A stretch of DNA of 64,000 nt from Cyanidioschyzon merolae (lineage: Eukaryota). The position numbers were made by a program, and so were the translations under genes. The stretch is from assembly GCA_000091205.1 (NCBI GenBank), contig AP006484.2; one strand, given 5' to 3'. Of the stretch, positions 3,978 to 61,315 are shown piece after piece; the first letter of the stretch is position 1, and each line of letters begins with the position of its first letter. The notes under the pieces were generated by a model. The model was not told the DNA's origin. It did not search any database and saw nothing but the letters and a program-made list of their open reading frames with translations.

Positions 3978-4204
3978 AGAAGTAGCTACCCAGTAGGAAA
4001 GAGGAAGCTCTACGTCTCTGAAATTACTTGGTTGCGCAGCAAACGAGCTTTCAGGGGGCAACCCCTGAAGAAAAAAAGCTGCCTGGGTTGGCGTGTACCC
4101 GTTGTGACGTGCTGGTCTTCGGGTGTCTCGCGACTGAAAAGCGCAGACAGCTCGAAACGCTCTACTGCGACGCTTATTCCGTTTTTGCCAGCGACCTGCA
4201 AGAA

Positions 4205-4230
4205 AAGCTGCTGCTGCTGCTGCTGCTGCT
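4205..4230. repeat. (CTG)n microsatellite in intergenic DNA
   Basis: ctgctgctgctgctgctgctgctc read directly. Confidence 0.8.
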
Positions 4231-24612: not shown

Positions 24613-25140
24613 AGAAGGTTTCGTGAGCTAGACGAGTCTGCTAGGCTGGTGCTTCACTCTCTAGACAGTGGCAGGTGCTGTGGCGAGCTCTGAGCAGCTC
24701 GTCTGCAACGCAATTCATTCTGGGACTAGGTGCAGTTAGGCTGAGTCTGGGCTTCGCACTGGTCGTGGTTGACTCCTAGCTTATCGATTCGTGCTGTCGC
24801 AGGCAGTCGGTCTGCCTGTACACTTTACATGCTCCCAGAATAGCTATGTACTCCGACTCCTTGTCGAATGGAGCAGGCATCGAGCCGAAACCCCGCCCCC
24901 CCACCAGTGGTGTGGCAAAGCCGTTCTGGCCCCGTGCTACGTACGCACTACCAGCACAGGCGCTACTGCGGGTGCTCATGGCAAGTACTCGGCGCACGAT
25001 AGACCGTACGAAACAACCAGTATATTCGAGAGGAACTAGGGGTCATGGAACCTGGAGGCCGGATGCTGCATGACGAACTTTTTTTCGAATGCTAATATCC
25101 ATCCCACAGCCTAGGAACCATGGCCAATGTAAATGCTTTT
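24580..25140. repeat. dispersed ~560-bp non-coding repeat, copy A (its 5' end is the progenitor of the 92-bp satellite)
   Basis: ~75% identical to 34826-35390. Shared blocks include cgtctgcaacgcaattcattctgggactagg, tggcaaagccgttctggcc, aaccagtatattcgagaggaac and gaatgctaatatccatcccacagcctaggaaccatggccaatg. Both copies start with the ttttccgtattgtggaaagatcacct satellite motif and end near a ccatgg pair. Confidence 0.7.
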
Positions 25141-27911: not shown

Positions 27912-28166
27912 CTACGACCGTTGCTGTCGCTCTATCATAGCCTTGCTAACAACTCCCATGGACTCAATGTACCTATCGACACACTTGGCTAAACAGGTCT
28001 GCTCCCCGGAGGTCAGCGTAGCGCTTGGTTTGGTCACGCACTTCTCAAAGCACTTTTCCGTCACTCGTTGTACGAGATCCTGAAACGCCTGCCGCAGCAT
28101 CTCATTTCGAACACGATCTTCAAGCTCCGCCCGCTGTGATGGCGTCAGTTGATCTATTTTATCCAT
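27912..28166 (-). CDS. small Tim family protein (Tim8/Tim9/Tim10/Tim13-type mitochondrial intermembrane-space chaperone)
   Basis: ATG at 28166. The 84-aa product has a twin Cx3C motif (KCFEKC ... CLAKC) with spacing characteristic of small Tims. It is the only convincing gene in the 25.2-31.7 kb stretch. Confidence 0.6.
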   Translation of the reverse strand: MDKIDQLTPSQRAELEDRVRNEMLRQAFQDLVQRVTEKCFEKCVTKPSATLTSGEQTCLAKCVDRYIESMGVVSKAMIERQQRS

Positions 28167-42191: not shown

Positions 42192-44141
42192 TTACGAATG
42201 AACGCGGGTGCGTCCCTTCCGCAGGTGTGCCTCCTCGTCGCACAGGCGGGGTCGATTGACCAAATCAGACCCGTGTCGACGCAAGAGACGATGAGCAGTC
42301 AACAGAAATACCAAACTTGCCACCGTCATTTGCCGTTTTGATTCGAGCAGCGCATAGATAAGAGCACAGATGCTCGCGAGCTCAATCCAGAGCAGCAGCA
42401 GGTACCAGCTGTGCGAGCGCTTCTCCAACAAGCGATGCTGCAGTGCGGTCACGCTCCGATTGAAATTCTGCAGCAAGACATCCACTGCGTCCTGCCGAAG
42501 CCCATCATACGCGTTATTGATGATATAGCGAAGCGCCGCGCTATAGCCGTCTCGGAACACGCCGCTCATCGTTCGACGGCCCGTGCGTGTAAAGTCGGTC
42601 TTCAGAGCCGCACTGCCCGCGTAGTAGTAAGCCATCGCGTCTGCATGGTCAGCCCACAGGCCATTGAAACGCCGTGCAAACTCGGCGCCCTCATCCAAAT
42701 CAATGAATCCCAGCGCGCGGATTTGATCTCTAATCATTCGTTGCGCGATCGCGCTCTGGACAACATTGGTTCGGTCTAAACAGTCGATACAGTTCGTTCG
42801 AATGACGCCGCGTTGGCGTTGAATGATGCAACGGCGCAGCACGTCTGCAGTGAAGACACCCTGGAGGGCAAAAACGCCTTCGAGCTGCGCTACAAGCTCA
42901 TGAACGCGTTCGTAGCGCATGCCCCGGCATTCCCGGTGAAAATCCCATGCGATATACGGAATGTGGAATCGGGACGCCTCCATCTCATAGCGACTCTGGA
43001 GGGTGTGTTCACTCCCGTGCTGATTGACGAGATCCACAACCACAACAGGCTCACCGTACCGCGCAGAAAGCCGCTCGAAATGTCGACCAAAGGCTAGTCC
43101 CGTCGCCGCGTCATCATGACCAACGCGGATCCGCGGCTTGTACTGTAAATTGGGGGTCTGTACCCAGGGTAAAGGTATGCTACCCCGGATCTGTACATAA
43201 GAAGTTAGATAATCGCCGCTACATACGACAGATTCTATTTCGACAAAGTTCGCGACATAGCCGTCACGATCTGCACCCCGCCGAAAGTACCGCACGCCGG
43301 CACGCACGCGACTGCAGCGGGATATCAGTGCGTATTGGGCCTGGTGAACGGAACCGTCCGGCTTGCGGCATCGCACGGGAATCATCTCCACAAAGCCGAA
43401 CAACAGTGGACGTACGAGCGCTTGCACTTGGGTCTTCGTGATGCCTGCAACTCGAGTGTCATCGAGCAGATTTCGCAGCAAGGAAGCGTTCCACGTGAAG
43501 GCGTTCCCCGGGGCACTCGACTCACGCAGGTCTGTGGGTCGATGCATGGACCGGTGCGGTTTGTCCCATTTGAAACAGGTCTCCTGTAGACGCTGGGTGA
43601 TATCCCATTGTGGCGAATAATAAAAGTTTTCGAGTCTGAGCGCTCGATCGAGCAGCCTCCGCAAAGAATCTTCGATGCACCGGGCGACTGGCGTTATAAG
43701 TTCTCGCGACTTGGACAAGTTCCGTATCGGTAACACGCTGAACTTGCGCACGCGTTGCACGCAAATCGGACAGAGCGACATCGTGGCTCGCTCACCAAAC
43801 AGCTTCCCGACGCTGACGCTTTCCGCGACGAATACCAGGTACTCGTTCACGCAGAGTTTCGCCACGCCAACAAGGCACTCAGCCCATACGTCAAATAGCA
43901 CTTTCGCGTACTCCGCATCTTGTGGTGCTGTTTGGAGAAGCCTCTGACCTAAAGCAGGATGGCTCGTTCCGGTGTTAACGCCGTCAGCAGCTCGGTTCGG
44001 CCCCAGCAGGTGCCCCTGGAGTCGATCCCATACGAGCAAGCACTCGACTACGGCCGGTGTAGCTGCATCAACCAGCCCAAGGGCGATCCAGTCTTCGGTG
44101 GCCACACACCGCAGACGGCGCTCCGACCGGGACACATTCAT
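42192..44141 (-). CDS. SAC1: SAC-domain phosphoinositide phosphatase (Sac1-like) with C-terminal transmembrane segments
   Basis: RAGVRYFRRGADRDGYVANFVEIE...IRGSIPLPWVQTPNLQYKPRI matches the Sac domain. The catalytic CX5R(T/S) motif is RTNCIDCLDRTNVVQS, followed by LWADHADAMAYYYAGSAALKTDFTRTG. There is a C-terminal double TM (WYLLLLWIELASICALIYALL). The track start is TTG. The ATG chosen is 44141 (MNVSRS), giving 649 aa. Confidence 0.8.
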   Translation of the reverse strand: MNVSRSERRLRCVATEDWIALGLVDAATPAVVECLLVWDRLQGHLLGPNRAADGVNTGTSHPALGQRLLQTAPQDAEYAKVLFDVWAECLVGVAKLCVNEYLVFVAESVSVGKLFGERATMSLCPICVQRVRKFSVLPIRNLSKSRELITPVARCIEDSLRRLLDRALRLENFYYSPQWDITQRLQETCFKWDKPHRSMHRPTDLRESSAPGNAFTWNASLLRNLLDDTRVAGITKTQVQALVRPLLFGFVEMIPVRCRKPDGSVHQAQYALISRCSRVRAGVRYFRRGADRDGYVANFVEIESVVCSGDYLTSYVQIRGSIPLPWVQTPNLQYKPRIRVGHDDAATGLAFGRHFERLSARYGEPVVVVDLVNQHGSEHTLQSRYEMEASRFHIPYIAWDFHRECRGMRYERVHELVAQLEGVFALQGVFTADVLRRCIIQRQRGVIRTNCIDCLDRTNVVQSAIAQRMIRDQIRALGFIDLDEGAEFARRFNGLWADHADAMAYYYAGSAALKTDFTRTGRRTMSGVFRDGYSAALRYIINNAYDGLRQDAVDVLLQNFNRSVTALQHRLLEKRSHSWYLLLLWIELASICALIYALLESKRQMTVASLVFLLTAHRLLRRHGSDLVNRPRLCDEEAHLRKGRTRVHS

Positions 44142-46219
44142 GGAGCTCGGAGTCGTTAACAATCCAACGCTGGAACCCAACTCGAGCAACGCTCCGTCAA
44201 CGGGTGTGCCAACGGGTTTCAGACGCAGCTGCTGACCCTAGTACGGCATTGCAGACGCGCACGCGCGCACGAACCGCTGCGCCTTGCTGGAAATGCGCTC
44301 ATCGGACGGGCGATTCGGGGCTCGGGCGCGCTTATCACCTGCGGATCTTGCAGTTTCTTCGGATTCATGTATTGAACCCGAGTTCCTCGGATACGTGAAG
44401 GATCTCGGCTGGTAGAGAAGCCTCCACTGTTCATACTCACATGAGCCTGCTGCCTGTCGGTCTTAGAGCCGTGTTCCTGTAGGGAACAGAAGCTGGATGG
44501 GATCCAGCGACCCCGAAAGCACCAATGAAGGGCGCGTGCAGCATTGCTGAATATTTCGTGATACAGTATCAGCGAATCGTGTGATGTTTTCCTGCATACC
44601 CAATTGACGTATTTGAGCAAGGAAGAGAATTCAATGCCTCTATATACGTTTCTGCGTAAATCACAGTCCAGATCAGTCTTCCTATCACGAATCTACGCTG
44701 TAATGGCCAAGAAATCTTGGGCAGGGTAACCAGCACACCGCAAACAATCGCTGCAACGCTGATTGCGGAGCTGCTGCTGCTGCTGCTGCTGCCGTTGTGG
44801 ACAATCATTCGCGACTGAACAGTTCTGCGCTGCCTGTATGCGCGTCGACTCGAGGCCGCCGCCGCCGCCGCCGCCGCGAACGCTCGTGCATCGTGGGCGA
44901 ACGCGCAAAGCCGTTCGTGAACGGTGAATCATAAGCTGGGCTTTCGTGTCACATGTTTTCGTATAAGTCAGCCAGACACTCATGTCATGCAATACGCGGA
45001 AGAGCGCTACTATCCTAACTCGAGCGTACGCTGCACAGTTTGGGTCTGCTCCCACTATCATCGATGCCGGTGTTTGCGGGCTGTTTCAGCGACGGCTTTC
45101 TCTTCTTCCCTCATATACTGGGCGTTACGTACGTCGGTTTCTCCGGTACCTCCAGTTCCACTTTCATCAGTCTTGGGATATTTATGGTTGTGTTCAAGTC
45201 CCGATTCCAATGCTTCTGTCTGTTGTCCATGACTTGCATACACAGGCGCAACTCGCGTTGGACGCTTCGTTTGCCAATTTCATGGACTCTGTATACAGTT
45301 TCGGTGAGCCCTCGGCTGCGCGGACACGTTGCCTTGGTCAGATATTCCCATATGTCCACCAGGCCTCCTCATCTGAAGGTCGATCTGTGAAGCGTGACCG
45401 GCTGCTTCATCGCTTGCAACATGCCCTTGACGAGTACAGAAGGCGAGCCTCGGTACCGCCCTCTGTATCCGCGCCATGAGCTGGGCGCTATGCTCGCGAG
45501 CGTCCCCTTAACGATTCCTCGGCGAGTACGCTGTCCGCTGCACACGCTGTTCCATTCCATAGCATACTTGTCGGATGCGATGTCGTCCATGGTGAAACGG
45601 GTACTGAAAGGAAGATCCTGGCCGGAGAACAAGTCGTGAAATTTCGTACCGTCTGCACTCTTGTAGTACGAAGTGGAGGCGCACGTTGCGCCGGAACCGA
45701 CCGCTGCGATGACTCTAGTTCGTGTCTACGACGTTTTCCTAGCTTACATAAGATACAAGATCTTCTCTAGGCATATCACTTGCTAGTTATAATGCTGTTG
45801 CCGAATGCGTTCGTCGATTGCCACAAATAGAGGATAATTTGAATTCCGAAGGGATTCAATTATGCGACATGATAAGTTCAGTGACCTTTTCGCATGAGCT
45901 TTTGAACAAATCGCCAACGGACAATGCCGCGTATCGCTTTCCTCGGTAGCCCGGCAGCGCGGATAGCTGCGCCCTCGAGTCGCCATGAAACGGAAAGATC
46001 ATCCGTTTGAAGCAGGCATGATTTGAGTCTGCTATACGTAAGGAAATCAGAATCGTGATGCGTTTTACGTATGGGTTGGGTAATGATATCGGTTCGGTTA
46101 CGAAACCTTATCTCAGGACGTCACGGAACGTCTTTGTTCCTGTATCGTAACAAAGTCGACGGACGATGCGCCGAAATAGTCTCTCCCGAACGACGACCAT
46201 GCATCCTAAATTGACGATA

Positions 46220-46690
46220 TCATCCGTACGCCCATATCATTGTACTTGGCCTATAGAAACTATGCATCTCCATAAAAGTCTGCATCCCAATCGCGAGACA
46301 GGAGCAGAGCATGCGCTTTGTACGCCCGTATCATTGTACTTGGCCTATAGAAACTATGCATCTCGATAAAAGTCTGCATCCCAATCGCGAGACAGGAGCA
46401 GAGCATGCGCTTTGTACGCCCGTATCATTGTACTTGGCCTATAGAAACTATGCATCTCGATAAAAGTCTGCATCCCAATCGCGAGACAGGAGCAGAGCAT
46501 GCGCTTTGTACGCCCGTATCATTGTACTTGGCCTATAGAAACTATGCATCTCGATAAAAGTCTGCATCCCAATCGCGAGACAGGAGCAGAGCATGCGCTT
46601 TGTACGCCCGTATCATTGTACTTGGCCTATAGAAACTATGCATCTCCATAAAAGTCTGCATCACAATCGCGAGACAGGAGCAGAGCAAAC
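46220..46690. repeat. tandem satellite, ~94-bp monomer x ~5
   Basis: tacgcccgtatcattgtacttggcctatagaaactatgcatctcgataaaagtctgcatcccaatcgcgagacaggagcagagcatgcgctttg repeats with a 94-bp period. The terminal units are diverged. It is unrelated in sequence to the 92-bp satellite. Confidence 0.85.
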
Positions 46691-47031
46691 ACTTCTGTGC
46701 TCCGTCGGCTTCTGATCTGCTTCGAGTCGATGTCCTGCGTACGCCTGGCAAGCAGCAAGGGTGCGCTTGCGCAGCACTGACCTGCACCCGGCAGGAGCGG
46801 ATGAAGCTCCATCGCAACACCACCGCGCCGTCGCCGATGACGCACGCCGGCCGCAGCGCGCATCGCACCGGCGGTGTGCGATGCGGACGCGACATCGACG
46901 CGCCTACAGCTGTGGGGCGTTGCTGCTTCGCAGTGTGAAACGTGAGGCAGGTTCATATCACGCTGCGAACGCTTTTCGTGAGGTGCCTGCATAGATCAAT
47001 TATTTTTTCTGAAAGTCTAGTATTCTGAATC

Positions 47032-48576
47032 ATGCAAGAGGGGAGTGTTACGCAAACGCTGGAGAACAAAAAAGCAATAGACGGAACGGCAAGCACGCTG
47101 AATCCTGTTGTGGCTTCCGGTGACTACCGCATCGCGGACCTGAAGTTAGCCTCCTGGGGTCGAGCCGACATCTCGCTCTCTGAATATGAAATGCCTGGGT
47201 TAATGGAGCTTCGGCGTGAGTACGCTCCGCAGCAACCACTGCGGGGCTTGCGCGTGGCCGGCTCCCTACACATGACAGTACAAACGGCTGTGTTGATCGA
47301 GACGTTACGCGCGCTGGGTGCGGAACTCCGTTGGTGTTCCTGCAACATTTTTAGTACTCAAGATCATGCTGCTGCAGCTGTTGTGGCGGCAGGTACTGCG
47401 CACGTCTTCGCTTGGAAAGGGGAATCCTTAGACGAGTACTGGGAGTGCACGGATCGAGCGCTCACGTGGGCCGACCAAGAGGGTCCCGATCTCATCGTTG
47501 ACGACGGTGGCGATATGACGCTGCTTATTCACGAGGGTTTCAAGGCAGAGAAGGAGTACTCGAGCACTGGAAAGTTGCCGGATCCGGAATCCACGACGAA
47601 TGCAGAGTTCAAGTGCGTTTTGCGTACTATTCGCGAATCAATCCAGCGTGATCCGACGCGTTTCCAGCGAATCGCGAATCGAGTCATTGGTGTCTCTGAG
47701 GAGACGACAACCGGTGTGAAACGTCTCGTGCGAATGGCACAAGAAGGCACGCTCCTTTTCCCAGCGATCAATGTGAACGACTCAGTCACCAAATCCAAGT
47801 TCGATAACATCTACGGCTGTCGCCACTCGCTCATAGATGGCATCGCCCGTGCAACGGACGTCATGCTTGCAGGCAAAGTATGCGTCGTCTGCGGGTTCGG
47901 CGACGTAGGCAAGGGCTGTGCAGAGGCACTGCGCGGCGCCGGAGCGCGGGTATTCATCACAGAAGTCGATCCGATCTGCGCCTTGCAGGCATGTATGCAA
48001 GGGTACACGGTGACAACCCTGGAAGATGTTCTCGACATTGCAGATGTGGTGGTAACTGCCACCGGCAACCGTGACATCGTGATGAAGCACCACATGGAGC
48101 GGATGGCGTATGCTCGGCGACCAGGAGGCGACCAGCCGCCGTCGGTGCCGATCATCTGCAACATCGGGCATTTCGATAACGAAATCGACTGGTCTGGACT
48201 CGTGTCGGATCCGAGCATTGAACGAGTCACCATCAAACCGCAGGTCGACCGTTTCATCTGGCCGCATGGTGGCTCTGTCATCATCCTCGCGGAGGCTCGA
48301 CTCGTGAACCTGGGCTGCGCCACAGGCCATCCATCGTTCGTGATGTCGTGCTCGTTTGCGAACCAGACAATGGCCCAGATTGAACTTGCTGCGAATCGGA
48401 ACACGGGCAAGTACCAGAACTCGGTGTACGTACTACCGAAACATCTGGACGAGAAGGTTGCTCGGCTCCATTTGGCAAAACTTGGGGCGAAGCTTACCAA
48501 GCTCACACCAGAGCAGGCTGAGTATATTGGCGTGGATAGCGACGGGCCGTACAAATCAGCGGCATATCGCTACTGA
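47032..48576 (+). CDS. SAHH: S-adenosyl-L-homocysteine hydrolase (adenosylhomocysteinase)
   Basis: ATG at 47032. The NAD-binding region is [45 protein letters not shown], with [13 protein letters not shown]. The ~40-aa insertion segment is typical of plant/bacterial-type SAHH. The 514-aa product is collinear with the enzyme throughout. Confidence 0.9.
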
Positions 48577-51500
48577 GCGGAAAGCGAAAGCCCTGCGAGA
48601 CGTCGCTGCCGCTACGTACATGCGGCACGCTCTCGACGGCTTGGCGTGCCTGTGCTGTGCAAAGCAATGGACGCACGTTTAGAGACATAAATAGCGCCTG
48701 CTGCATGGATCTGCCCGGTGTCCGCTCTGTGCATCCTTGAAAGCTTTTGCGAGGAGGTATGTCCACATCTATTGCTCCAGTAACCCAGTTTTGGACAGCT
48801 GTGAGCGCCACTTGCGCAACGCATATGGCAACGGCTGCCGATACCACCAGTGTCCTGACTGCATGTACGAAGGCCTGGGGCGTGCGCCTAACGTTGCAAC
48901 CACTGCCGTGCGACAGAGCAAGCGGCATCGCGGTGGCATTTCGGTGTATGGCCAGGGATTGTGCTTAAGCACGTGACCGCCAAGTACATGTTCATCGTCA
49001 GAAATTCATGCAATGGACAATGCGAGCTCTACCTCGACGATAGGGTATCGATCGCATGCGGCCTGTAATGACGATTGTAGCGTATGCGCTAGTCCATTGC
49101 CGCTCACCAATGGACGCGTTTCGTTCGCCAACATGGGGTAGTGTTTGGCGCCTTTTCGCGTAACGATGATGAGCATTGTCCTGCGACCCGTTGCTCCGGC
49201 CGTGCGGCAAGGCCGCATTTCTTTTCGATCGTCTAGGATCGGTGCATCGAACCAGGGATTCTCCCGGTATGTGCGCGGGCGAATGCCCTGAGCGTCGCTG
49301 CATGGCTACGTTTGGATTGTTCTACAAAATCTATAAATATACAAATTTGAAATGCGTGGGGTACACACGAAGCGTCGCTGCATCGCAATGACCGCCTCGT
49401 CCTCTAGAATACGTAAATGAATGAGAATTCGATGGCGTCGATGGCGAGGCTCTTCCAAGCCGCTGAGGGCACCGATTGCGCGAGGCATCCAGCTTCTGCT
49501 CTTGTGCGTCCAGCTTGCGTCATTGGCGCTGCAGCGAGAATAGTCCATGATGTCTATGGACATGAGGAAACAGGCAGTGGACTGTTCAGCGCTGAGCACC
49601 GACGAGCACGTTCGCTGTCGCCATGACAATGTCCGTTCTGGCACACGAGGCAGCTTGAGGATCTGCGCGAGTGCTGTAACATCCGAGTCAAAATAGAATG
49701 GAGCATTGGACTATGCGACCGGTAACTGTAGCTCGATTCTCTCAGAACTTTTCTCGCATGTTCAACCTCGATATTCGAAGAGCAGCAATAAAGGCTTGCG
49801 GATTCACACGCATTTTTTTGGATTCGAGGTTGCTTCTTTGGAATAGCTCATACGAATATCTGATGCTGAATTTGGTCACGTCACCGGAATCAGGATGATT
49901 CCCAACGCCCCCGGAATGAAACTTTCGCAAAATAGCCGAAATCAACTTCGATTTCAAATGTACAAGCCTCCAATCTTCTCCGTTCCGGACGTGACGCATG
50001 TCTCAAGTCCTCGATCATTCTGTTTCGGGATACATCATGGGTAAAGCACTTGCCGCCGTTGGATTGTCGTGGGAAACATACACGGTATTGACTCTTCAGG
50101 AGTCGTCCACAAGGCCATGCTGAGCGCTCACTGCACTTTTCTCGCCGAAAAATCGATTTCGTTAGAGGCACAAATCCGCCACTTTTTGTGGTCAGCGACG
50201 AAATGGCATTCGACAGAAGCATGATGCCCGTCACTTGATATGCTCCTAGAGGCTCCAGTCTCTTCCATTTGCACGGAGCAGGGTCTTGGATTCGGACTCG
50301 AGTCATCGCAGCGATCGCCTGCAATAGATAGTTTGTCATCAATGCGTGCGAAAGGCGCATACACAGATCGGAATTTCTCGACTTGATCTCCATCCTGGAT
50401 TCTCCTGCCGGTGCTTGGTTCATCATAAACAATATCACGTTCCAGAGATCCCCTATCGAATGGAAAAATGTGCACTGGCGCGTCCAGTGGACGCGGTGCT
50501 CGCCGAGGGCATCGCCGGGAGGAGAGAGTGATCTTCAGGTGCGGCACACGGCGCAGAAAAGAGAAAGGGTATCAGGAGGAGCCCTCTGAACTCGCCAAGG
50601 GCATGTACTGAACGACGAAGCGAATGTCTACTCGCCACAGAGAGTCGTTTAGAGGAGCAGCAATGGTATACATATGGGGACCTTTGAGCACTGCCAAGTC
50701 CTAGCGCCGCGAGGCTCGCACCAAGCCACCATACAAATACGATGAAAATAGCAAGCGAAGCGTAGATTGCGACTTTCGCCAGTGCAAGAAAAGCGTTGAC
50801 AATAGCCAGAAGTGTCTACATCGGGACTTGCGCGTTCATCTGCATCGTTCCGCTGCTGATAACAGTGCTTGGGGGTACAAGAGATCCCTGAGTTTTTAAA
50901 GCCGGCGGAAACAGAAAGGAACCGGAACCAGTCGCAGAGACAGCACGCCAACGCCGGCTTTCATCACAGCAGGAAAGGCTCGAGCTTGAAGGTCTACGTC
51001 CGAGTGAGCAAAACTTACCCGTACCATTTTTGTCCGAGAAGGGTGTAGTGGTACCCGCAGGCGCGTCCCTCGCAGCGCCAGGAAAATCCCCATGCTGCTG
51101 CGGCGGCCGAGTCGTCCGTAGAGTCATGATATTGACGTCCGAGTCATGCTCCAGCGTCTCTAATGCAGGGTCATATACTGGATGAAGGGTGTCAAAATTA
51201 GAGCTGCAGCGGGTATCGAGATGCGTAAATGCGCCCTTCTTCGTGATAAGGCAGATAAACGCGGCAACACGGAATGTTTATCCCGAGGGTCGCATCTTGC
51301 GCCTGTCGGCGCACCCGAGTAAACGGAAGCACACACAAGCATTGCTATGGAGAGTAAGCGGCCGCTAGCGACATTTAGAACCGGGAAGACACAACAGGAC
51401 GGTGAGCCTTGCGGCGGCGGTGGCGGTGGCGGCGGTAGCAACAGAAACTGCAGCGATCTGTTGCTTCCAAGTTTAATTTCGTTCAGAAAGCTTCGCAAGA

Positions 51501-51995
51501 GGTATAAAGTGACTTCCTTCTCAGGACAGATAGGACGAGTCGGGCTTCACGAACTAAGATCCACGCAAACTAGCGCCAGAGAACGCGAGTCGACCACGTG
51601 GCGGTCAGCCGTTTTGGAGCCCGAGGACTCCGCTTAAAGCGAACGTTGAACATAGCTGGGAACAGAAGCAGTACTGCACTTTGAGGCGCCCTAGGTTCAG
51701 CTGCATCGAGTCAGGCAAGTGTTTCTTGGTTATACACGCTGGGCGGTCGCAAGTGTTTCTGGTGCACGCCGGGTGCCCGCTGTAGCTCCAGCGGACCGAA
51801 CAGGGCAAGCGGTTGTACCTGTGGGCGGAAACGAGCGGCCTCCAGTGCCGCGCTGTACGTTCTTTTCTGAACCGGACGGCGCTCGGGGTACCGGCTCCGA
51901 GAGCTACTGTGGAAGCTCTGCTGTACGTTTCCGTTGGGTTCGGCTTTGCGTCTCAACGGGGAACGATCGCTCTCCGCGCTAGGGTCTCGCTTTGC

Positions 51996-54392
51996 ATGGA
52001 GGCGGAACAGAAACCAACAAAGGATGTCACCACTGGTCGCACCGACGGAAGCGCATCCACTGAAGAAAGCGCAACAGCGTCTGTAGCCGGCTCAGCTGAG
52101 CGAAACACGAGTGCATCACGCGCTGCAACTTGTTGTGGAGCGGACGCTTTACCCAGTAGCCGGGCTGTCCTAGCACGGAACGTCTCCGAGAGTCCTGACC
52201 AGTCGGCGGAAACCTTGGTTGCTCGTCTCGCCGCTACCAAAGCCGAGCTCGAACGAACGCGATCAGAGTATGCGGCATACAGAGAAAGCGTTCAGCGAAC
52301 GTTGGCGCTCATCCTACCAGAAAAGCCCTTTGTGATTGCGTTTGAGGCCCTTCGTCGAGGCTACACCACGGTCAGGGACACCCAGATCGTCCGTGATATG
52401 TGCCAACGAGTGAATGGACCTCAATGGGATGCCATTTTCGAATCGTTCTACCAAGCTGTGCTGTATTACCGCGAGTTACGACCGTCTTCACTTGTCCAAC
52501 GCGATGCCGACCTGCCGCAGGACTGGTTTCGCGAGCCTTGGTACTGCCTCTACCCACAGTTCATGGGCACGGAGCAGGATGATGTCCTAGCCAAAGTGCA
52601 CAGCTTTCGTGACCTGATCGATCTTTTACCTTACTGGGAGGCACTCGGGATACGGAATTTGTCGCTGCTTCCTCATTACGACAGCGACTGGGCTGACGGG
52701 GGTTACGACGTTCGTGCGTATCGGCCTCATCCGGCGCTTGGTGGTCTCGAGGCGTTCCAGGAGTTCGTCTCGGCGGCAACGCAACGCGGGTTTCGCCTCA
52801 TGACGGAGGCTATATTCAGTCATACGGCAACCGATCACGAGTGGTTTCAACGCGCACTTCGCGGCGAGTCGCGATACCTTCGCTACTATCTCCGGCGCGA
52901 TGGAAGGGAGAAAATTGGGGAATACGAGCGCAACGGGGAAGTCATCTGTCGGTATCGAGACCCTGACGGCACCATCACCGAACGCATATGTTTGTTCCCT
53001 GATATTGACCGTACGCATGGACTTTGGGTGCAGGTTAAGAGACAAAACGGGTCCGTTGCGTCGGAGAAGAACGAAACCAGCACGGAGACGGTTCAGTTCT
53101 ATCGCACTTTTCTTCCATTTCAGGTCGATCTGAATCTCCAAAATCCAGATGTTTTGCAGGAATTTTTCCACCTCCTCGGTGAAGAGTTACAGTTGGGAAT
53201 TCTCGGCAAGCGTATAGACGCAGTGGCGCACTGGGTCAAGCGTCCCGGAACCCCCGGCGATGGACTCCCTGAAACCCACACTCTTCTGGCGCTCTTCAAG
53301 TCATTCATTCATCACCTGTGTCCACGCGCAGTGCTGATGCCCGAGGCCGTACGACCCAACCATATCGCCAGCCAATACGCTGGTATCGGAACGGAGCTTT
53401 GCGGAAATACGCGCAGCTCTGAGGGCGATCTTGTCCTCTGCTTTGAGCTGCAGGCAGCGCTTCGTGAGATGCTCTGGTTCCGTCGAACGGCGCCCTGGTG
53501 GCGTGTTGTACTGCAACTTCCCAAACTACCGGCAGGCGCGGATTGGTGCGTTCCGTTTGCGCACCACGACGATATTTATCTGGGGTTCTTTGAGCCATCG
53601 GTGCGTGCTGACGCAGTCCAGTGGATACGCACATGTGGCGGGCTCGTCTACCGTGGCGGCATCTCGGCGGCGTGTAGTGAGTACGACCTGCTGGCGAGGG
53701 ATCCGCGGCGCCTGGGCCTGGCGTTTTTCATCTTGCTCGTGGGTGTCGGCACGCCGTTCCTCTACCAGGGTCTGGAGCTTGGAATGAGTAGTTCCTTTGA
53801 TTATGCGCGGTTGCAGATGCAAAGACGCTACGAGCGACTGAAGAAATGCGGCGTGCTGGTAGCAGAGGGCGCCTGTATGGATCCTCGCGACCTTCATCGT
53901 GGTCCGATCCCGCGGGCTCTTCTCTGGGAAGCTCTGGAGCAGAGCGAGGCCCAGGGCTATCAAGTACCGACCAGGCTGGGGTTCGGTGTGGCGATTCTTC
54001 GACAACTGAATGCGCTGCGCTCGGCGCGGCCCAGTTTGCGTTCGGGAAGCATTCAACCGATTGATACCGGTCGTGCGGAGATTATCGCGTTTATTCGGCA
54101 TCATGGCTCACGGGACGGTCCATTGTTGTGTGCAGCGAATCTTAGTGATAGCGAGGTCGAGATGGTTACACCGTCGTGGCAGCTAGGGGCTTATTTAGGG
54201 ACCAACACCGCAACCGACTTGGTCTGCAGCGATCTCCTGCGAGATGCTGGCACTTTTGCGGTTCCAGACGGTGAGCGGGAAGCGTCGGGCGCCCAGAAGA
54301 GGTTGCGTTTACAGGGCACCGGTTACGTGCTTCGTCTTGAGCCGCTTGCGATGCAGATTCTAGAGCCGAGCAAGCCCACGCGTCAGAAGTAG
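51996..54392 (+). CDS. glycoside hydrolase family 13 enzyme, amylosucrase-like (GH13 subfamily 4-like), with ~200-aa N-terminal extension
   Basis: FSHTATDHEWFQRA vs amylosucrase FNHTSNEHEWAQRC. FQVDLNLQNPDV vs FQWDLNYSNPWV. GKRIDAVAHWVK vs RMDAVAFIWK (nucleophile Asp). LMPEAVRPNH (acid/base Glu). VPFAHHDDI (third catalytic Asp). The track start is TTG. The first ATG is at 51996. Confidence 0.7.
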   Translation: MEAEQKPTKDVTTGRTDGSASTEESATASVAGSAERNTSASRAATCCGADALPSSRAVLARNVSESPDQSAETLVARLAATKAELERTRSEYAAYRESVQRTLALILPEKPFVIAFEALRRGYTTVRDTQIVRDMCQRVNGPQWDAIFESFYQAVLYYRELRPSSLVQRDADLPQDWFREPWYCLYPQFMGTEQDDVLAKVHSFRDLIDLLPYWEALGIRNLSLLPHYDSDWADGGYDVRAYRPHPALGGLEAFQEFVSAATQRGFRLMTEAIFSHTATDHEWFQRALRGESRYLRYYLRRDGREKIGEYERNGEVICRYRDPDGTITERICLFPDIDRTHGLWVQVKRQNGSVASEKNETSTETVQFYRTFLPFQVDLNLQNPDVLQEFFHLLGEELQLGILGKRIDAVAHWVKRPGTPGDGLPETHTLLALFKSFIHHLCPRAVLMPEAVRPNHIASQYAGIGTELCGNTRSSEGDLVLCFELQAALREMLWFRRTAPWWRVVLQLPKLPAGADWCVPFAHHDDIYLGFFEPSVRADAVQWIRTCGGLVYRGGISAACSEYDLLARDPRRLGLAFFILLVGVGTPFLYQGLELGMSSSFDYARLQMQRRYERLKKCGVLVAEGACMDPRDLHRGPIPRALLWEALEQSEAQGYQVPTRLGFGVAILRQLNALRSARPSLRSGSIQPIDTGRAEIIAFIRHHGSRDGPLLCAANLSDSEVEMVTPSWQLGAYLGTNTATDLVCSDLLRDAGTFAVPDGEREASGAQKRLRLQGTGYVLRLEPLAMQILEPSKPTRQK

Positions 54393-57300
54393 CGTGGGTA
54401 CTACTGTTAGGGAAACTTGTGCAGAATTTCACAGCGGCTAGCGTGGTATCTAAACAATGGATAGAGAAACCAGCTTCGAGGATGCTATGCGCTAATAACT
54501 GGGGCGCATTCCGAAGAGCTGCCTATGCGCGAGCGCGTTGTCTTCTCTGGTGAAGCACCCGGCTGCACTGCAGTGCTGTGCAGCGCGGTGTTGCGGATCC
54601 GCTTGGGTACGGTTCCCGACGTAGCGCGGTACAGAAGCGCAATCACAATCTGCTTTTCATGCAGGTGAGCGCTGGTTGATGCTGCGACTTGATCAGGATC
54701 TGTGGGCCGTTTCATGAGAAACGAATGACAGGCTCATGGAATTTGCGGTTCCGTCGGTGGTAGCGATGCAACTCGTGAACCACTTACCTCGTAATATGGT
54801 GACTCTGAGCGACGCTGCCAAATGGTTCGTGAGCATGAACGTCCTCGTCACACGGATGCAGTCGTTCGGAACAGCGGCTTTATGGGACCTGTCCTCGACG
54901 ATGGTGTCGATCCTGTGCTTGCAGTGCTTGAAAACAAGGAGCGTAGAGATGGGATCTGCACAGTCCATGGAGCCTCACAGTGATTCCGCGCTGGTCTTCT
55001 CCGCAGAGGTACGCCCAGTGCTTATGCTCATTCACGCTAGCGTCTCTTGGTTCGAACTTGGTTTGAGCGATTGAACGCGGCTGCACGATTCAAACGCCGA
55101 ACAGGGGCGGATTCCACTTGGCGATGGCAGCAGCCGGGGGCACGACGCTCGACGACGCCATCTTTCTCCACTGGAACGATGTTTGGAGCTAATCAAGTGC
55201 TGTTCCTATCGAGCGCGCCAGTTCGATGAGATTGACGACGCCCAACAAGTTCATGCGAGTCGTGGAACCTGAGATGCGGAGCTTGCGCTCGCGGTGGCGC
55301 TTATTACAACTGCTTAGCACCAGTCGCTGTGACGAGCCCGCAGCAGCAGCAGCAGCGCCCGACAGGACTCGGGGCGGATCAGTTACCACCCGTGCTGTCT
55401 ACCGTGGTCAGATATTCCCAAATGTCCGCCAAATTTAGTTTTCCTCCGAGCGCTACCCTGTCGCGCGTGAACGCTCGCCTCATCGCTCGATACACTCTAC
55501 TGAAACCTACAGAAAGCTTCGCACCATGCCCTCTTTCGTTCCGTTGCCCGGCGTCGTAGCCCGGAATTACGGGCTTCGTCTGGGAAATCCGATCGGAAAG
55601 TACTCTGTCTACCGCACATACAAGAGCACACTGATCCACGCTACGGAGGATTTGTTGAACGAGATGTTTCTTCCCGATGAAATAACTGCCGCAAGGAGGA
55701 TCCAAGATGGAAAAACTCTATCCATCTAGGCTCCGTTCATGCAAAGAGATGTCGAATTCTCCACGGTAGGGGATCGTTGCAATGACTCTGGTCAACGTTT
55801 AAGACCCGCTTCTCATGCATAAAGAAAAGACGGTAACGTCTAGGAACATAATCAGCAGCGCATACCACGCTGCTGTCGAATGGCGTTTCGTGGATGATCA
55901 CGTTGACGGGAGGATTTATCTTTCGAGCGGAATCGATGGGTTGATTTTACAACTTCGTTGAACCGCTCGACGTGATCGTAAGAGCATGTCGTCGACGGAC
56001 GACGTCCTGTACTGTTCCTCAACATTCCAGTGACGCGAATCGCTCCGCCCACGAGTTGCCTGGATTCGAAAAGATAAAGAACTTGAAGAAAACCTATTGT
56101 CAGTATACCAGGTGTACCAAACCAAAAGATGGACGTGTTGTGCATATAAAATTCGTTATGATATCGGTTACTTGATGCGAATCTGAGTGCGAAGGCGTTG
56201 CGCGTCCTCTTGAATCCAGTGGCATAACGAGATCCAGCGGCAAAGCATCAAAGAAACTACTCCAACAAGACAACCAAGAATCCCAATTTTTGCTATGAAT
56301 CCATAAGGGCTGATTACAGCACCTCGTATTCAGGGCCTGTACATCAAAAGCAAGTTTCGAAATACATCGCCAGGCAGCAACAGAGCACGCTCATCATTTT
56401 TCCATGTCAAAATCAGTCGAGTCTAGAAGAGGGTGCTGCCTGAAACATCCACGTACAATAAGGACAAACGCTCCATGGGTCCATGGACATGCATGCACCC
56501 ACCTCTTCGTCTAATTCCTGAGCGCAGGCATCGTGAACATGTGTGCGCAAGTTACCTGAATAGACCAGCTGGGGGCAGCACTCCCAGTAGCGCGCACGCA
56601 GCCTCAGGCCGCCAACTCCTCAGGACGTCCCAAACCCTTGACATTACCTACGAAACAGATTCAGACGACTCCAACCTGACAAATACTCATATTGTCCAAA
56701 TCTCGCGTCTCCAACAACAAGTTAGAGCAAGCTGACTTACACCAAGAATAGAACGTCCCCGCATACGCTGTGTCTGCTCGAAGCTGCTTCTACGCGCGAT
56801 CGTGCACCGCGTGGTTGCGCGCCGCCGCCAGATGATGCAGCGATTCGATCTGGCGCTACGAAGAAGCATTCGTGCGCTCTATGGCAAAGGCGGCCAAAAA
56901 GCACCAACGGCATCTTAACGATGATCATGATCATCATTAATGTTGACGATATCACCATCAACATCAACAACATCGCTAACAGCATAGGATCCAAGACCTC
57001 CAGTACTCGTAGCAGTCGTAGCATCCTCGCTTATAGCGCACGATCGCTAGAGGCCTTTGCGCATCATCGCCGCCGCCGCCGCAGCTGCTGCCGCCGCCGC
57101 CGCCGCCTTGGAATCTCCCGACGGGTTGATCCAGAGCGGCTCGGTACCGTAGGGAGGCAGGTACGAGGTTTAGGTTTCGCCTGGAGCGCGCTTTGGGGCA
57201 GCCTTTTCAGGGCTGTTCTCGAACACTCTTGCTCTATTTGCAAAAGTCTTAGTTCACTGTGGTTGCGTGCGCGAGTTGTGTTGGCGCTCTGCTCTGGTGC

Positions 57301-57405
57301 AGTGGACTTGGTGACAACGTTCACTGGAACGGAAGCGTCACGAGGCGTGAGCAGCGCTGCGCGTGTCGCGAGGCAGAGCGAACCTTCTGGCTTGCTTGGT
57401 CCTGA

Positions 57406-58737
57406 ATGAAGCAGACTGAGCCCATGGAAACTGAGACGCAGTCAGAAACGCCTACAGCACCAAGTTCACGTGAGTCCGTTTCTGAGCAGAGCGGGGCGGT
57501 GTCGGCCGAGTCACGGAAGGTGTTGCCTCGGATCGCAAGTGCGGGCAATGAGCTCTATCGCGCAGCGGCGCCTGGTGTGCCATCCGCGGTGACTGCTTCG
57601 TATTCTGACTTTATTGCACAACAGCAGCATTATCAGCAGCAACAGAGAAGTTTAAGCGGCAGTGGTGGCAGCGGTCTTCGTCATAGCTTTTCGTGGGGTT
57701 CGTTCGTAGCGGCACCACCGTTCGCCGTCGGGTATGGAAGCGGTATCGGAGGCAGCGTCCCTAACCTGAGCTCTGGGGCTGCCCCGTTGGGTGCCGCAGA
57801 GATTCTCGCACAAAACGCATACCTCCACTCGGAACTAAACCGGGCGCAGTCGGAAATACAGGCACTACGGAATCGTATTTACGAGCTGGAGATGCACCTG
57901 GGGGTTGCCAGCTGTGGCGTCCGTTCCCCGACTGAAAGAGCATCAACACCTCCAGCTCCGGCGAGCGCTGGTCAGGGCAAGGCGCCAGGCAGCAGCACTG
58001 CGGTCGCTTTGGGCTCTGGGCCAGTGCTGACTGCGCCGCCGCCCTTGCACGTAGCAACTGCAGTTCCGTTTGGAGGATCAGCTGCGATACCGGCTTCTGG
58101 TGTTGGCGCGCTGTACTCTAACAATCGAGTGATGCCCTGCATGTCAATGCCGCATAGCTCGAGTCCACTGAATTTGCCAGCCTGGCGACCAGATCGGTTT
58201 TCGCCGTCTCCACCACCCGCCCAGTTTGGCAGCGGCCTCAGCACCAGCGCTACTACTGCATCTGGGCGCGCGGCATCTGTGCCAAACCAACCGTTTTCCT
58301 CTGCTGGACCTGGTAGTAGTCATGCGCGGCCGGGGCTCGCCGCAAAGAGCATGCTCGCCCGACACGATTCTCTAGGTTCCATCAGCAAAGACAGCCATAA
58401 CAGCCACGCGGATGAATACGGAACTGGGGGTTACAGCAGCAGCAGTGGAAGCAGTCTTCGTATTGGAGAACGTAGACGATCTCAATCATCCTCGAAACGA
58501 CGTGGAAGAGCCTCATCAGTGGGGTCGGCACCGGAGACCGGAACCCCGCAGCCACGGTACTGGACTCAGGAGGAACACCAACGTTTCCTGGAAGCTCTGG
58601 AAAAATTCGGAACCCGGAACGTGAGAGCGATCAGCGAGTATGTTGGTACTCGAAACGCAACGCAGGTTCGCACCCATGCACAGAAGTACTTCTTGCGGCT
58701 CACTAGAGAGGCAGAGAGGAAAACCTCGCGACCATGA
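57406..58737 (+). CDS. MYB-like transcription factor, SHAQKYF class (single Myb/SANT repeat at C-terminus)
   Basis: ATG at 57406. The C-terminus is RYWTQEEHQRFLEALEKFGTRNVRAISEYVGTRNATQVRTHAQKYFLRL. The preceding ~380 aa are Ser/Ala/Gly/Pro-rich low complexity with a short coiled-coil. Confidence 0.7.
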   Translation: MKQTEPMETETQSETPTAPSSRESVSEQSGAVSAESRKVLPRIASAGNELYRAAAPGVPSAVTASYSDFIAQQQHYQQQQRSLSGSGGSGLRHSFSWGSFVAAPPFAVGYGSGIGGSVPNLSSGAAPLGAAEILAQNAYLHSELNRAQSEIQALRNRIYELEMHLGVASCGVRSPTERASTPPAPASAGQGKAPGSSTAVALGSGPVLTAPPPLHVATAVPFGGSAAIPASGVGALYSNNRVMPCMSMPHSSSPLNLPAWRPDRFSPSPPPAQFGSGLSTSATTASGRAASVPNQPFSSAGPGSSHARPGLAAKSMLARHDSLGSISKDSHNSHADEYGTGGYSSSSGSSLRIGERRRSQSSSKRRGRASSVGSAPETGTPQPRYWTQEEHQRFLEALEKFGTRNVRAISEYVGTRNATQVRTHAQKYFLRLTREAERKTSRP

Positions 58738-58931: not shown

Positions 58932-61315
58932 CTACTCTGGAGGTCTTTTCTCCAGCACCGCACATCTCCTTATATTGATAGCGGCGTTAAAGTCTCTGTT
59001 AACAAATTCCATACGTTTCTTGCCATCATTGGTTGTACTTACTAGTGCAAGTAGTCCTCGAACTTTTGCCATCCTTTCCATTTGCTCGTCTGTCAGCGGT
59101 CCGTACTTTGCGATTTCCTCAGGGCTCCACTGGCACTTTTCCATCTCGACCCTCTGAAGTCTACACCCCAGTTCATGGTGCGTATACGATGTTCGGAACT
59201 CATCTACGGATATTGTAACGAAACGTCGTGCACACTCTTTGTACACCCTCGTCGTTGGAGAAGACGTATTCTCTTTCTTGGGCGCCCAGCGCCCTGCCCC
59301 ATACGCTACTACGAGCCTCTGACTCTCATCCTCCTTCAAGGCGACCAACTGATTGAAAAAGTTGGCAAACGCCCGCTGTTTCCCGCCGTATAGATTCATT
59401 CGCAAACGAGCCCACCGGGGCTTGGTATCCTCCTCCCACAGCGCATCCCAATGAGCAACACGAATTTCCATGAATTTCCGAAAAGCTTCAAAGTCCGCTC
59501 CTCGGCTCGTCACCTCGCTCAAAGCTCCCAGGTGATCCTTCATTCCTGAATTCCAAGTCTCGATTTTCTTCCTCGCATTCATCATTCCCAATTCTCGATA
59601 GTATCTCGCTCTCGAGAACCCCAAAAGACGCATGTCTTTCTGACGCAAGTTACCGTCAATGCCATCTTCCGCACGCTTTGGTGCTGCGATGGTTATGATA
59701 TTCGTGTTCCCAGGGTCCGCGCCAACGACAAAGTCGTTATCCTGCACTTTCTGTGTCCGAGGGCCCGCCTTCTTGTTTTCTACATGCTTCGCCGCGCCAA
59801 CCATAAAGGCGTTATCCTACACCTCCTGCATCACAGGATCCGCCTCCTTCTCGTGTTCACCCTTGGTCACGTTAACGACAAAGTCGTTATCTTGCACTAT
59901 CTGCTTCTCAGAACGCGCCTTGTTGTTTTCTTCATGCTCAGACAGGCCAGCGACAAGGTTGTCATCCTCCACCTCCTGCATCGCAGGACCAGCCTCCTCC
60001 TTTTCTTCATCCTTCGTCACGTCAACGACAAGGTCGTTATCCGCACCTCCTGCGTCGCAGGATCCTCCTCTTTGTTTTCTTCATCCTTCGCCACGTCAAG
60101 GACGAGGTCATTATCCTCCACTTCCTATGTCGCAGGACCAGCCTCCTCCTTTTCTTCATCCTTTGTCACGGGCGCAGCCGAGGGCGCAACTGGCCGATCT
60201 CCCTTCAACGGCCGATAGTGTATACACAAGGCTACTCCATCGGTTTCAATCATCCCGCTGAACAACTTCTGCTTGCTCACTCTCAGAGGTTTGAAATCGA
60301 AGATGCTCTTCCTGTACGTCTCCCGGTTTTTACCAGAGAATTCCTCTGTGCTAACATTGGACTCTGGACTGATCTCCTTCATGATGCCATGAAGGACGCC
60401 GGAGTTGATAGTCACAAAATGTGACTCGATCTTGCACATTGGAACCACGTTGAAGCGCTTACCCATTAGGACAGACTTCCGTCTCTCCCACTCTTCATTT
60501 GTCTCTTCACTCAGCTTCATCTCCGCTTCGCGTTCGAGTTCACGGTCCAAAAACACAAGATACCGCAGGGAGAGGCGATAGTATTTTTCCTTATCTATTT
60601 TCAACTCTGATACCTTTTCTGTTGGATTCACCAGCCCCAAGACTGCACGGTGCTCTTGTATAGCCGCACGGGTTACAGAAGCTTCATTCGTGCTCCCTTT
60701 TGACGTCTACTTGTCGACAAATTCGACCTCACCTTGATGCTTGCGATCTCTCGTGATGCCATTGATCATCGCCCATATTCCTTTGCGAGAGATACCTGGG
60801 TAGAGTGCAACCGCGGCGCGTACTATGAAACATTCGAGGATCACTGTCAAATGGTTCTTCAGATTCGTGAGGTACTTCATCGCTCCGTATGTGTAAATAC
60901 CCTGGCCACCCTTGTATCGATTACCCTCGAAGCGGAATTCCGCGAAGTTTTCGTGGAGGCCGTCCACTAGCACATTTTCCTTCCGCGCTTCCGCTGTACC
61001 AAAGATGAGGTAACGAAAAAAGGTCTTTTCGAAAAACTCGTCCGGAATCTCGACCGTTTCCATGTGCGTCACGTCGCGATACATCTCCCTCGCTAAATGC
61101 ATCAGTCCTGACGACGCCTCTATAATACTCTTGGAGTCCGAATCGACACGGTTTCTGATAGCGTCTCGCAAATTTTCTCTGCAGGGATCCTTGACATGTC
61201 CAAGAAGAGAGGTATTCACAACCATCTCGTTGTACAGTCGTCTTTCTTGCAGCCTTCGACGCAGGACCTTCCCCTTTTGGGTCTTCTTCTCTTCCTTTTC
61301 TCCTGGACTCGGCAC
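58932..61315 (-). pseudogene. Fanzor-like (eukaryotic TnpB/IS605-OrfB family) RuvC nuclease gene, interrupted by an in-frame TAG and a frameshifting intragenic tandem repeat
   Basis: C-terminal 290-aa segment (58932-59804) has Ruv[24 protein letters not shown]. It has an IGDW-like LVVAYGAGRW. RuvC-II is TISVDEFRTSYTHHELGC with a Cys/His cluster. RuvC-III is NRDFNAAINIRRC, then stop. The N-terminal parts (60710-61315 and 60128-60706) share one frame but are separated by TAG at 60707-60709. They begin with a K/E/R-rich NLS-like stretch (GEKEEKKTQKGKVLRRRLQERR). The frame shifts in the repeat block 59700-60180. The track start at 61315 is GTG, so the true N-terminus is undefined. Confidence 0.6.
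59700..60180. repeat. intragenic tandem repeat (~74-bp units, ~5-6 diverged copies; 148-bp double unit) inside the Fanzor-like ORF
   Basis: gacaaagtcgttatcctgcac / gacaaggttgtcatcctccacctcctgcatcgcagga motifs recur at ~59729, 59808, 59877, 59953, 60027 and 60100. The units encode repeated ...[19 protein letters not shown]...[10 protein letters not shown]... peptides. The segment encoding the RuvC-I strand DNDFVV is reiterated three times. Confidence 0.75.

Follow-up and report, generated by a model that had tools for sequence, protein, structure and literature searches.

What kind of enzyme is encoded by a bacterial-type glycoside hydrolase family 13 (GH13) gene that lies among eukaryotic genes in the red alga Cyanidioschyzon merolae, and does either of the names proposed for it hold? 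This conserved nuclear gene is found in a 64,000-nucleotide stretch of contig AP006484.2 (assembly GCA_000091205.1; the whole stretch is hereafter called the window), where a single-exon open reading frame (ORF) runs on the + strand from an ATG at 51996 to a TAG ending at 54392 and encodes 798 amino acids (aa). Its product is 100% identical to the C. merolae 10D protein BAM78952.1 / XP_005535238.1, deposited as 'similar to trehalose synthase', and an initial annotation of the window had likened it to amylosucrase. The gene itself is already known and deposited, and it is its placement and annotation that are corrected here. The protein is a member of GH13 and a member of neither GH13_16 (trehalose synthase, TreS) nor GH13_4 (amylosucrase); judged from its sequence, it sits in an unstudied GH13 lineage adjoining the amylosucrases. 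We consider it rather probable that it is a catalytically competent, probably cytosolic, retaining alpha-glucosyl enzyme with a closed pocket (exo, -1/+1), belonging to a distinct GH13 clade.

Placement within GH13

The protein scores 91.5 bits (E 8.9e-26) with Pfam PF00128, whose gathering score is 22, and an AlphaFold2 model built from 15 orthologues (predicted local distance difference test (pLDDT) 82.9, predicted template modelling score (pTM) 0.81) shows, in order, a disordered leader (aa 1-69), a long helix (aa 67-106), an N-domain of four helices (aa 110-172) and a (beta/alpha)8 barrel from which a large, beta-rich domain B emerges after beta3, followed by the C-terminal beta-sandwich typical of GH13, for which the Pfam matches (DUF3459 and Malt_amylase_C) are weak. 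The four motifs quoted in the initial annotation are all present, FSHTATDHEW at aa 274-283 (52815-52844), FQVDLNLQNPDV at aa 375-386, RIDAVAHW at aa 406-413 (53211-53234) and FAHHDD at aa 521-526.

Relationships within GH13 were assessed with neighbour-joining trees, for which the references were five plasmid genes (four annotated as amylosucrase and one as generic alpha-amylase family) together with P0044, a protein that reaches 415 bits against 2WPG, as well as four treS-annotated genes and GH13_31-type outgroups. In an 88-taxon L-INS-i alignment, the family proper received 95-96% bootstrap support and joined two intermediate uncharacterised clades at 75-78%; the resulting superclade grouped with the amylosucrases at 94-96%, and any grouping with TreS received 0%. 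The amylosucrases (annotated genes plus P0044) formed their own clade at 98-99% and the TreS sequences theirs at 62-97%, depending on sampling, with the C. merolae protein outside both. A 195-taxon neighbour-joining tree agrees, giving the amylosucrase grouping 81%. The two intermediate clades score 250-350 bits with the TreS model and have TreS as their best PDB matches (190-275 bits). From the tree placement and these intermediate-clade scores, the protein is assigned to GH13 outside both GH13_4 and GH13_16, in a clade that may already have a numbered CAZy subfamily without characterised members. The earlier view that this is no ordinary eukaryotic amylase or alpha-glucosidase is supported, and the protein belongs with the bacterial-type GH13 enzymes of the amylosucrase/TreS neighbourhood.

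The deposited name assumes a genuine TreS, interconverting maltose and trehalose, and whole-domain scores from hidden Markov models and hhalign slightly favour this assignment. A phmmer search of PDB sequences gives 147 bits for TreS (E 6e-42) and 92 bits for amylosucrase, and hhalign of the family profile scores 442 for TreS, aligned from aa 173, and 398 for amylosucrase, aligned from aa 135 and thus taking in the last N-domain helices. All informatively annotated top matches in a tblastn search of plasmids are treS, at ~27% identity, with amylosucrase absent among them, and no amylosucrase model is among the NCBIfam matches listed. The initial proposal of an amylosucrase-like enzyme stands at the level of the conserved motifs and is not borne out by the whole-domain scores. 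With TreS (reference structures Thermobaculum 5X7U, Deinococcus 4TVU and Mycobacterium 4LXF; 26-27% identity) the C. merolae protein shares LPETH, the WFQRA that follows region I and the approximate length of loop 7. C. merolae possesses trehalose-pathway proteins, and a 2026 pathway map of the alga draws a trehalose synthase ('TS') (PMC13306765). Two distant bacterial clade members also match Mak_N_cap upstream of their GH13 domains (P0129, aa 108-166, 25.5 bits; P0173, aa 107-167, 21.1 bits; cut-off 22), though these marginal matches come from a Noviherbaspirillum-related subclade and are not relied on.

Set against this, the score with the TreS equivalog model TIGR02456 is 158.9 bits, under one quarter of its cut-off of 678.35, and the bootstrap analysis separates the family from canonical TreS altogether. 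The motifs that are invariant among TreS sequences of the reference alignment, HQPDLN, RLDA(V/I)PYL, AEANQ, RNHDELTLEM and GDRDGVRTPMQW, are replaced by FQVDLN, RIDAVAHW, PEAVRP, AHHDDIYLGF and DPRDLHRGP. TreS has no counterpart of the family's N-domain, larger domain B or insert after beta8, and the C. merolae protein has no maltokinase fusion. A genuine TreS is accordingly judged unlikely.

The motif-level likeness to amylosucrase proposed earlier is readily seen in EHEW, FQxDLN, DAVAH, HDDI and, after beta8, D-x-R-x-x-H-R-x-P. Region I reads NHTSTEHEW in the family, NHTS.EHEW in amylosucrase and NHTSDQHPW in TreS, and the corresponding readings are FQVDLN, FQWDLN and HQPDLN for region V; DAVAHW, DAVAF and DAVPY for region II; HHDE(T/I)Y, CHDDIGW and NHDELTLEM for region IV, where the HHDDIY of C. 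merolae contains the HDDI of amylosucrases; and DPRELQRGP, D.RWVHRP and GDRDGVRTPMQW after beta8. Like amylosucrase, the protein is a closed-pocket retaining GH13 type with a helical N-domain before the barrel and D.R..HR.P after beta8, its DPRDLHRGP resembling the pocket-closing amylosucrase motif D-x-R-W-V-H-R-P, and amylosucrases are its top Foldseek matches. Together with the well-supported grouping of the superclade with GH13_4, these features are what a functional amylosucrase or sucrose hydrolase would display, that is, a GH13_4-like enzyme converting sucrose to alpha-1,4-glucan, or hydrolysing or isomerising it. Identity to the reference enzymes (Neisseria polysaccharea 1G5A, Deinococcus geothermalis 3UCQ and Xanthomonas sucrose hydrolase 3CZE) is, however, 23-29%, and the protein falls outside their clade; it has a longer domain B and an additional helix after beta8, carries GKR before the nucleophile where amylosucrases have (L/F)R(L/M), and bears, in the red algae, a coiled coil and a disordered leader not found in amylosucrase. 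In amylosucrases loop 7 is extended into a B' domain, one Arg of which takes part in the +1 (fructosyl) subsite. Loop 7 is here ~20-25 aa shorter than in six amylosucrase references, without a full B' domain, and C. merolae has Ser561 where hhalign aligns the Arg of B'.

The gene contexts of bacterial relatives hint, indirectly, at a connection of the family with sucrose in a single lineage. In Melainabacteria GWF2_37_15 (L013, 5456-10136), a PfkB kinase, a major facilitator superfamily (MFS) transporter and the GH13 member are followed by RecQ, in overlapping or closely spaced genes that form an apparent operon, and a metagenome locus (L093) has the same PfkB/MFS/GH13 arrangement. The best model for the L013 kinase is fructokinase (190 bits) and for the transporter a sucrose/H+ symporter (95 bits), both below their curated cut-offs, and on these matches the locus looks like one for sucrose utilisation. 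The ~11 other bacterial contexts of the ~12 examined hold mostly unrelated genes, the arrangement being confined to the GWF2_37_15 lineage, while clusters of sucrose-phosphate synthase, sucrose-phosphate phosphatase and fructokinase were found at far more distant loci (22-25% identity) that probably encode true amylosucrases. A Myxococcales metagenome-assembled genome (MAG; L016) carries two adjacent divergent GH13 genes, at 1073-3037 (-) and 3302-6055 (+), which between them encode a 917-aa family member and a 654-aa alpha-amylase-domain protein.

The main soluble photosynthate of red algae is floridoside rather than sucrose, and sucrose is not known to be a major sugar in this group. Amylosucrase identity survives as shared motifs and a sister position and fails as membership of GH13_4, and a functional amylosucrase or sucrose hydrolase is regarded as quite unlikely.

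Domain layout, active site and proposed activity

Table 1. Coordinates of the C. merolae GH13 gene and of the features of its product in the window.
Feature	Position	Strand	Description
Complete coding sequence	51996..54392	+	798 aa plus stop, single exon; equals BAM78952.1 / XP_005535238.1
Leader, aa 1-70	51996..52205	+	Disordered, Ser/Thr/Ala-rich, not conserved; pLDDT <50 for aa 1-69
Long helix, aa 67-106	52194..52313	+	Coiled-coil-like heptad region TKAELERTRSEYAAYRESV; red-algal consensus QQREIEALRARLA
N-domain, aa 110-175	52323..52520	+	Four helices, ends R..L..RD..LP.DWF
Catalytic (beta/alpha)8 barrel with inserted loops, aa 176-683	52521..54044	+	GH13
beta2 loop ADGGYDV, aa 233-239	52692..52712	+	Asp234 and Tyr237 of closed -1 pocket
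Region I TEAIFSHTATDHEW, aa 270-283	52803..52844	+	E271/S275 replace usual Asp/Asn; His276 kept
Enlarged domain B, aa 296-372	52881..53111	+	Five-stranded sheet; family motifs CRYRDPDGTITER and DIDRTHGLW
Region V FQVDLNLQNPDV, aa 375-386	53118..53153	+	QxDLN type of oligo-1,6-glucosidase/amylosucrase/TreS group
Region II GKRIDAVAHW then ...GLPETH, aa 404-428	53205..53279	+	Arg406, nucleophile Asp408
Region III MPEAVRP, aa 448-454	53337..53357	+	Acid/base Glu450
Region IV FAHHDD, aa 521-526	53556..53573	+	His524, transition-state Asp525, Asp526
Loop-7 segment SAACSEYD, aa 557-564	53664..53687	+	Family consensus SAGGRxAD; Ser561 at consensus Arg
Helix after beta8 (~30 aa), then DPRDLHRGP, aa 598-637	53787..53906	+	Asp629, Arg631, Arg635
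Domain C beta-sandwich, aa 684-795	54045..54380	+	Strands 685-791; low-confidence loop aa 752-763

The elements that set the family apart are common to its algal and bacterial members (Table 1). Domain B is ~20-24 aa longer than its amylosucrase and TreS counterparts and contains the most conserved family motifs, CRYRDPDGTITER and FPDVDRTHGLW (DIDRTHGLW in C. merolae), whereas the insert KRQNGSVASEKNETSTET within it (aa 348-365) is confined to the C. merolae branch; the ~30-aa helix after beta8 is likewise family-specific. The beta2 loop ADGGYDV matches SDGGY in amylosucrase and DDGYD in TreS, and we take Asp234 and Tyr237 to play the pocket roles assigned to their homologues in amylosucrase.

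The catalytic triad noticed in the initial annotation is intact (D408, E450 and D525), and by alignment R406, H524, H276, Asp234, Tyr237, Phe375, Arg631 and Arg635 are retained as well, so that the residues of the -1 glucose pocket, common to amylosucrase and TreS, are all in place. The unusual Glu and Ser of region I are also real (TEAIFSHT, with E271 and S275, against a family consensus of TDAVFNHT). They are a lineage-specific change and not a family trait: Glu with Ser or Gly occurs in the branch of C. merolae, Cyanidiococcus and P0003, and canonical TDA(V/I)(F/L)NHTS is kept in Cyanidium, Galdieria, Porphyridium, florideophytes and bacterial relatives, a catalytically degenerate Rhodosorus copy being the only sequence outside the C. 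merolae branch to have both Glu and Ser. In loop 7, hhalign places a family-consensus Arg opposite the B'-loop Arg of amylosucrase, an equivalence that is tentative since the MAFFT and hhalign alignments disagree there; this Arg, replaced by Ser561 in C. merolae, has been lost more widely in Cyanidiophyceae, Cyanidium included.

Several relatives have lost catalytic residues outright. The acid/base Glu is Gln in a Saprospiraceae MAG (L011, 7974-10340), Arg, Glu and His are gone from P0091 of a Deltaproteobacteria MAG, and the nucleophile, acid/base and HD motif are missing from Rhodosorus marinus P0225 and from P0037, an MMETSP transcript. These sequences suggest that pseudo-enzymes exist within the clade, and a non-catalytic role is consequently possible in parts of the family. 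The protein of the Cyanidioschyzon lineage might itself be catalytically impaired and serve a structural or regulatory function, for example as a coiled-coil scaffold on starch-metabolising complexes; the region I replacements, the loss of the loop-7 Arg, the degenerate relatives and the conserved coiled coil added in red algae are all compatible with such a role. However, Asp to Glu is a conservative change, and the catalytic triad, Arg406, the two His and the Asp, Tyr, Phe and Arg of the pocket are intact in C. merolae and its 72-74%-identical relatives despite saturated synonymous sites. Between C. merolae and Cyanidiococcus, the proportion of synonymous differences (pS) is 0.78, while that of non-synonymous differences (pN) amounts to 0.17 for aa 176-798 and to 0.14 for aa 71-175, as compared to 0.65 in aa 1-70, where it approaches a pS of 0.82. 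Purifying selection thus acts on the coiled coil, the N-domain and the body of the enzyme, and not on the first 70 residues. An impaired protein is considered very unlikely.

The fold, the triad, the -1 pocket and the selective constraint over aa 71-798 (pN 0.14-0.17) favour an active enzyme, the reading that we prefer. By homology, Asp408 would attack the anomeric carbon of an alpha-glucoside whose glucose is held by Asp234, Tyr237, His276, Phe375, Arg406, His524, Asp525 and Arg631, Glu450 would protonate the leaving group, and water or the hydroxyl of another sugar would then take up the glucosyl group from the enzyme intermediate, completing a double displacement. Like amylosucrase, sucrose hydrolase or TreS, such an enzyme would act at the level of disaccharides as a transglucosidase, isomerase or hydrolase. 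Our best guess is that its substrate in the alga belongs to cytosolic floridean-starch/trehalose metabolism and is an alpha-glucosyl disaccharide or a short malto-oligosaccharide, of maltose or trehalose type, and the main alternative is of sucrose type. The hints at the substrate are weak and mutually conflicting, and for this reason a disaccharide or short-oligosaccharide transglucosidase/isomerase is favoured with its substrate left open.

Several points weigh against this proposal. The trees are distance-based only (bootstrapped neighbour-joining), and the sister relationship to amylosucrases therefore needs confirmation. Literature searches gave no biochemical characterisation of the gene, its red-algal orthologues or any other clade member. 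C. merolae carries substitutions close to the active site (E271, S275 and Ser561, the last an Arg in most of the family), catalytic residues have disappeared from the Rhodosorus, Deltaproteobacteria and Saprospiraceae proteins described above, and both the role of the coiled coil and the cytosolic location are predictions.

It is also possible, though doubtful, that the clade forms a new GH13 subfamily whose specificity, for substrate or for product, has not been described in GH13, with a novel +1 site shaped by domain B (CRYRDPDGTITER and FPDVDRTHGLW) and the beta8 helix, and that it was captured by the common ancestor of red algae from a Myxococcota-like bacterium into cytosolic carbohydrate metabolism. 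If this were true, the 'trehalose synthase' step in red-algal pathway maps would be wrong.

The N-terminal region

The initial annotation described an N-terminal extension of ~200 aa that was foreign to bacterial enzymes. This extension resolves into three parts, a neutral leader, a red-algal coiled coil and a helical N-domain, of which only the first two (~aa 1-105) set the algal protein apart, the N-domain (aa ~110-175) being found in bacterial relatives. Over aa 1-70 the sequence is disordered and of low complexity and the orthologues do not align, and P0003, a 72%-identical relative, begins at the equivalent of ~aa 73. The leader is acidic, and its sequence shows nothing that resembles a plastid or mitochondrial presequence.

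The following segment, aa 67-106, forms a single long amphipathic helix with a coiled-coil-like pattern conserved across red-algal orthologues, and would most likely mediate oligomerisation or partner binding. The N-domain, in turn, is common to bacterial family members and resembles the N-domain of amylosucrase, as an all-helical unit packed before the barrel such as characterises GH13_4. A profile of the N-domain alone searched against PDB sequences returned noise (E >= 0.1), and its homology to the amylosucrase N-domain therefore rests on the hhalign context and the predicted structure. The N-terminus is thus largely an ancestral bacterial N-domain, extended by the coiled coil of red algae and by a neutral leader.

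Origin, genomic setting and implications

All named eukaryotic members of the family are red algae, namely Cyanidioschyzon, Cyanidiococcus, Cyanidium, Porphyridium purpureum, Rhodosorus marinus, Eucheuma, Gracilaria and Gracilariopsis, with further members in Galdieria sulphuraria, G. partita and G. phlegrea. The clade covers all sampled red-algal classes along with Myxococcota, Melainabacteria, Bacteroidota and other bacteria, and, clustered at 50% identity, numbers at least 64 representatives. When 1.84 billion representatives were searched with a profile, the matches formed a continuous series down to bacterial proteins. A genome scan with an 8-sequence alignment contributed to finding the nearest bacterial relatives, which belong to MAGs of Myxococcota, Melainabacteria/Gastranaerophilales, Saprospiraceae/Bacteroidota and Pseudomonadota and lie on contigs bearing ordinary bacterial genes (flagellar, Ccm and two-component). 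A Myxococcota MAG protein is 41% identical to the C. merolae protein over aa 125-762 and 47% to that of Galdieria, and Melainabacteria and Saprospiraceae proteins both reach 34% to C. merolae and 40-41% to Galdieria.

These unnamed bacterial 'alpha-amylase family glycosyl hydrolases' (e.g. MDX2083876.1 and L011-L015) are 33-47% identical to the red-algal proteins across N-domain, barrel and C-domain, and have in common with them the motifs of domain B, the helix inserted after beta8 and DPRELQRGP. They are without the disordered leader of red-algal type, and some are longer N-terminally. The N-terminus of bacterial P0041 is hydrophobic and signal-peptide-like in appearance. Next to Cyanidium and the C. 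merolae group branches P0079, a 1479-aa protein from a Logan contig whose ~580 extra C-terminal residues have no Pfam match and could represent a real fusion or a gene-calling artefact.

In a focused 83-taxon neighbour-joining tree, the family proper is supported at 100%, and the red algae are monophyletic (89%) within a group that contains Myxococcota/Deltaproteobacteria-type sequences (89%). Since the red-algal sequences make up a single clade within a bacterial group, the gene was apparently acquired once, in an ancient transfer from bacteria to the red-algal ancestor, much as the initial annotation had suspected. Nodes outside that group have <60% support, and the donor is for this reason not resolved.

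That the nearest non-algal relatives are bacterial could also point to bacterial contamination, or to a very recent transfer into the sequenced strain. The gene nevertheless has a GC content of 0.572, and of 0.598 at third codon positions (GC3), both like neighbouring genes, and its codon usage correlates at 0.79 with the rest of the window. It lies among eukaryotic genes on both flanks (the window encodes Peroxin-3, M50 peptidase, MoeA, SPT6, NOG1, SacI, AdoHcyase, Myb and SDR), and the order SacI-AdoHcyase-GH13-Myb, at 42192-58737 of the window, is kept in Cyanidiococcus yangmingshanensis (L175, VWRR01000019.1), where it persists despite saturated synonymous sites. The orthologues from all sampled red-algal classes form one clade, and environmental C. 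merolae variants have the same gene with 1-4 amino-acid differences and 7-10 nucleotide changes, too few for an informative within-species ratio of non-synonymous to synonymous substitution rates (dN/dS). Composition, eukaryotic neighbours and conserved gene order exclude contamination, as had been concluded earlier from composition and codon usage, and neither it nor a very recent transfer is seriously credible.

Elsewhere in the window, scans for tRNAs and Rfam families gave no match, including in the ~6 kb at 23100-29000 that are free of ORFs of >=130 aa on either strand amid otherwise gene-dense sequence. The ORF at 58932-59804 (-), of 290 aa, has the lowest GC content in the window (0.505) and a codon usage uncorrelated with that of the other long ORFs (r = 0.14), and may be not a real gene, or one of different origin.

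The name 'trehalose synthase / maltose alpha-D-glucosyltransferase' has spread to the Cyanidioschyzon, Galdieria, Porphyridium, Gracilariopsis and Gracilaria proteins. The genome paper of Gracilariopsis lemaneiformis, in contrast, states that trehalose synthase is limited to a few bacteria and that the alga lacks it (PMC5970526). The related G. chorda and Gracilaria changii (P0033/P0028) carry the gene, annotated 'Trehalose synthase' in G. chorda, which shows that the family is annotated inconsistently. Because the C. merolae protein fails every TreS membership test run, the maltose-to-trehalose route inferred for red algae rests on an unsupported label.

The case is one of mis-annotation and ancient gene transfer, and not a new kind of system. 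What is corrected is membership of both TreS, as in the database name, and amylosucrase, as first proposed, together with the view of the N-terminus as eukaryote-specific, when most of it is an ancestral bacterial domain; what is new is an uncharacterised GH13 clade, nearest GH13_4, that is common to red algae and several bacterial phyla. Amylosucrase- and TreS-type enzymes serve as transglucosylation biocatalysts, for which thermoacidophilic algae could offer useful variants. C. merolae is genetically tractable, and function is therefore directly testable in a clade without a characterised member. For the red algae, a bacterial-type carbohydrate enzyme fixed before their classes diverged bears on how the cytosolic floridean-starch/osmolyte network was assembled.

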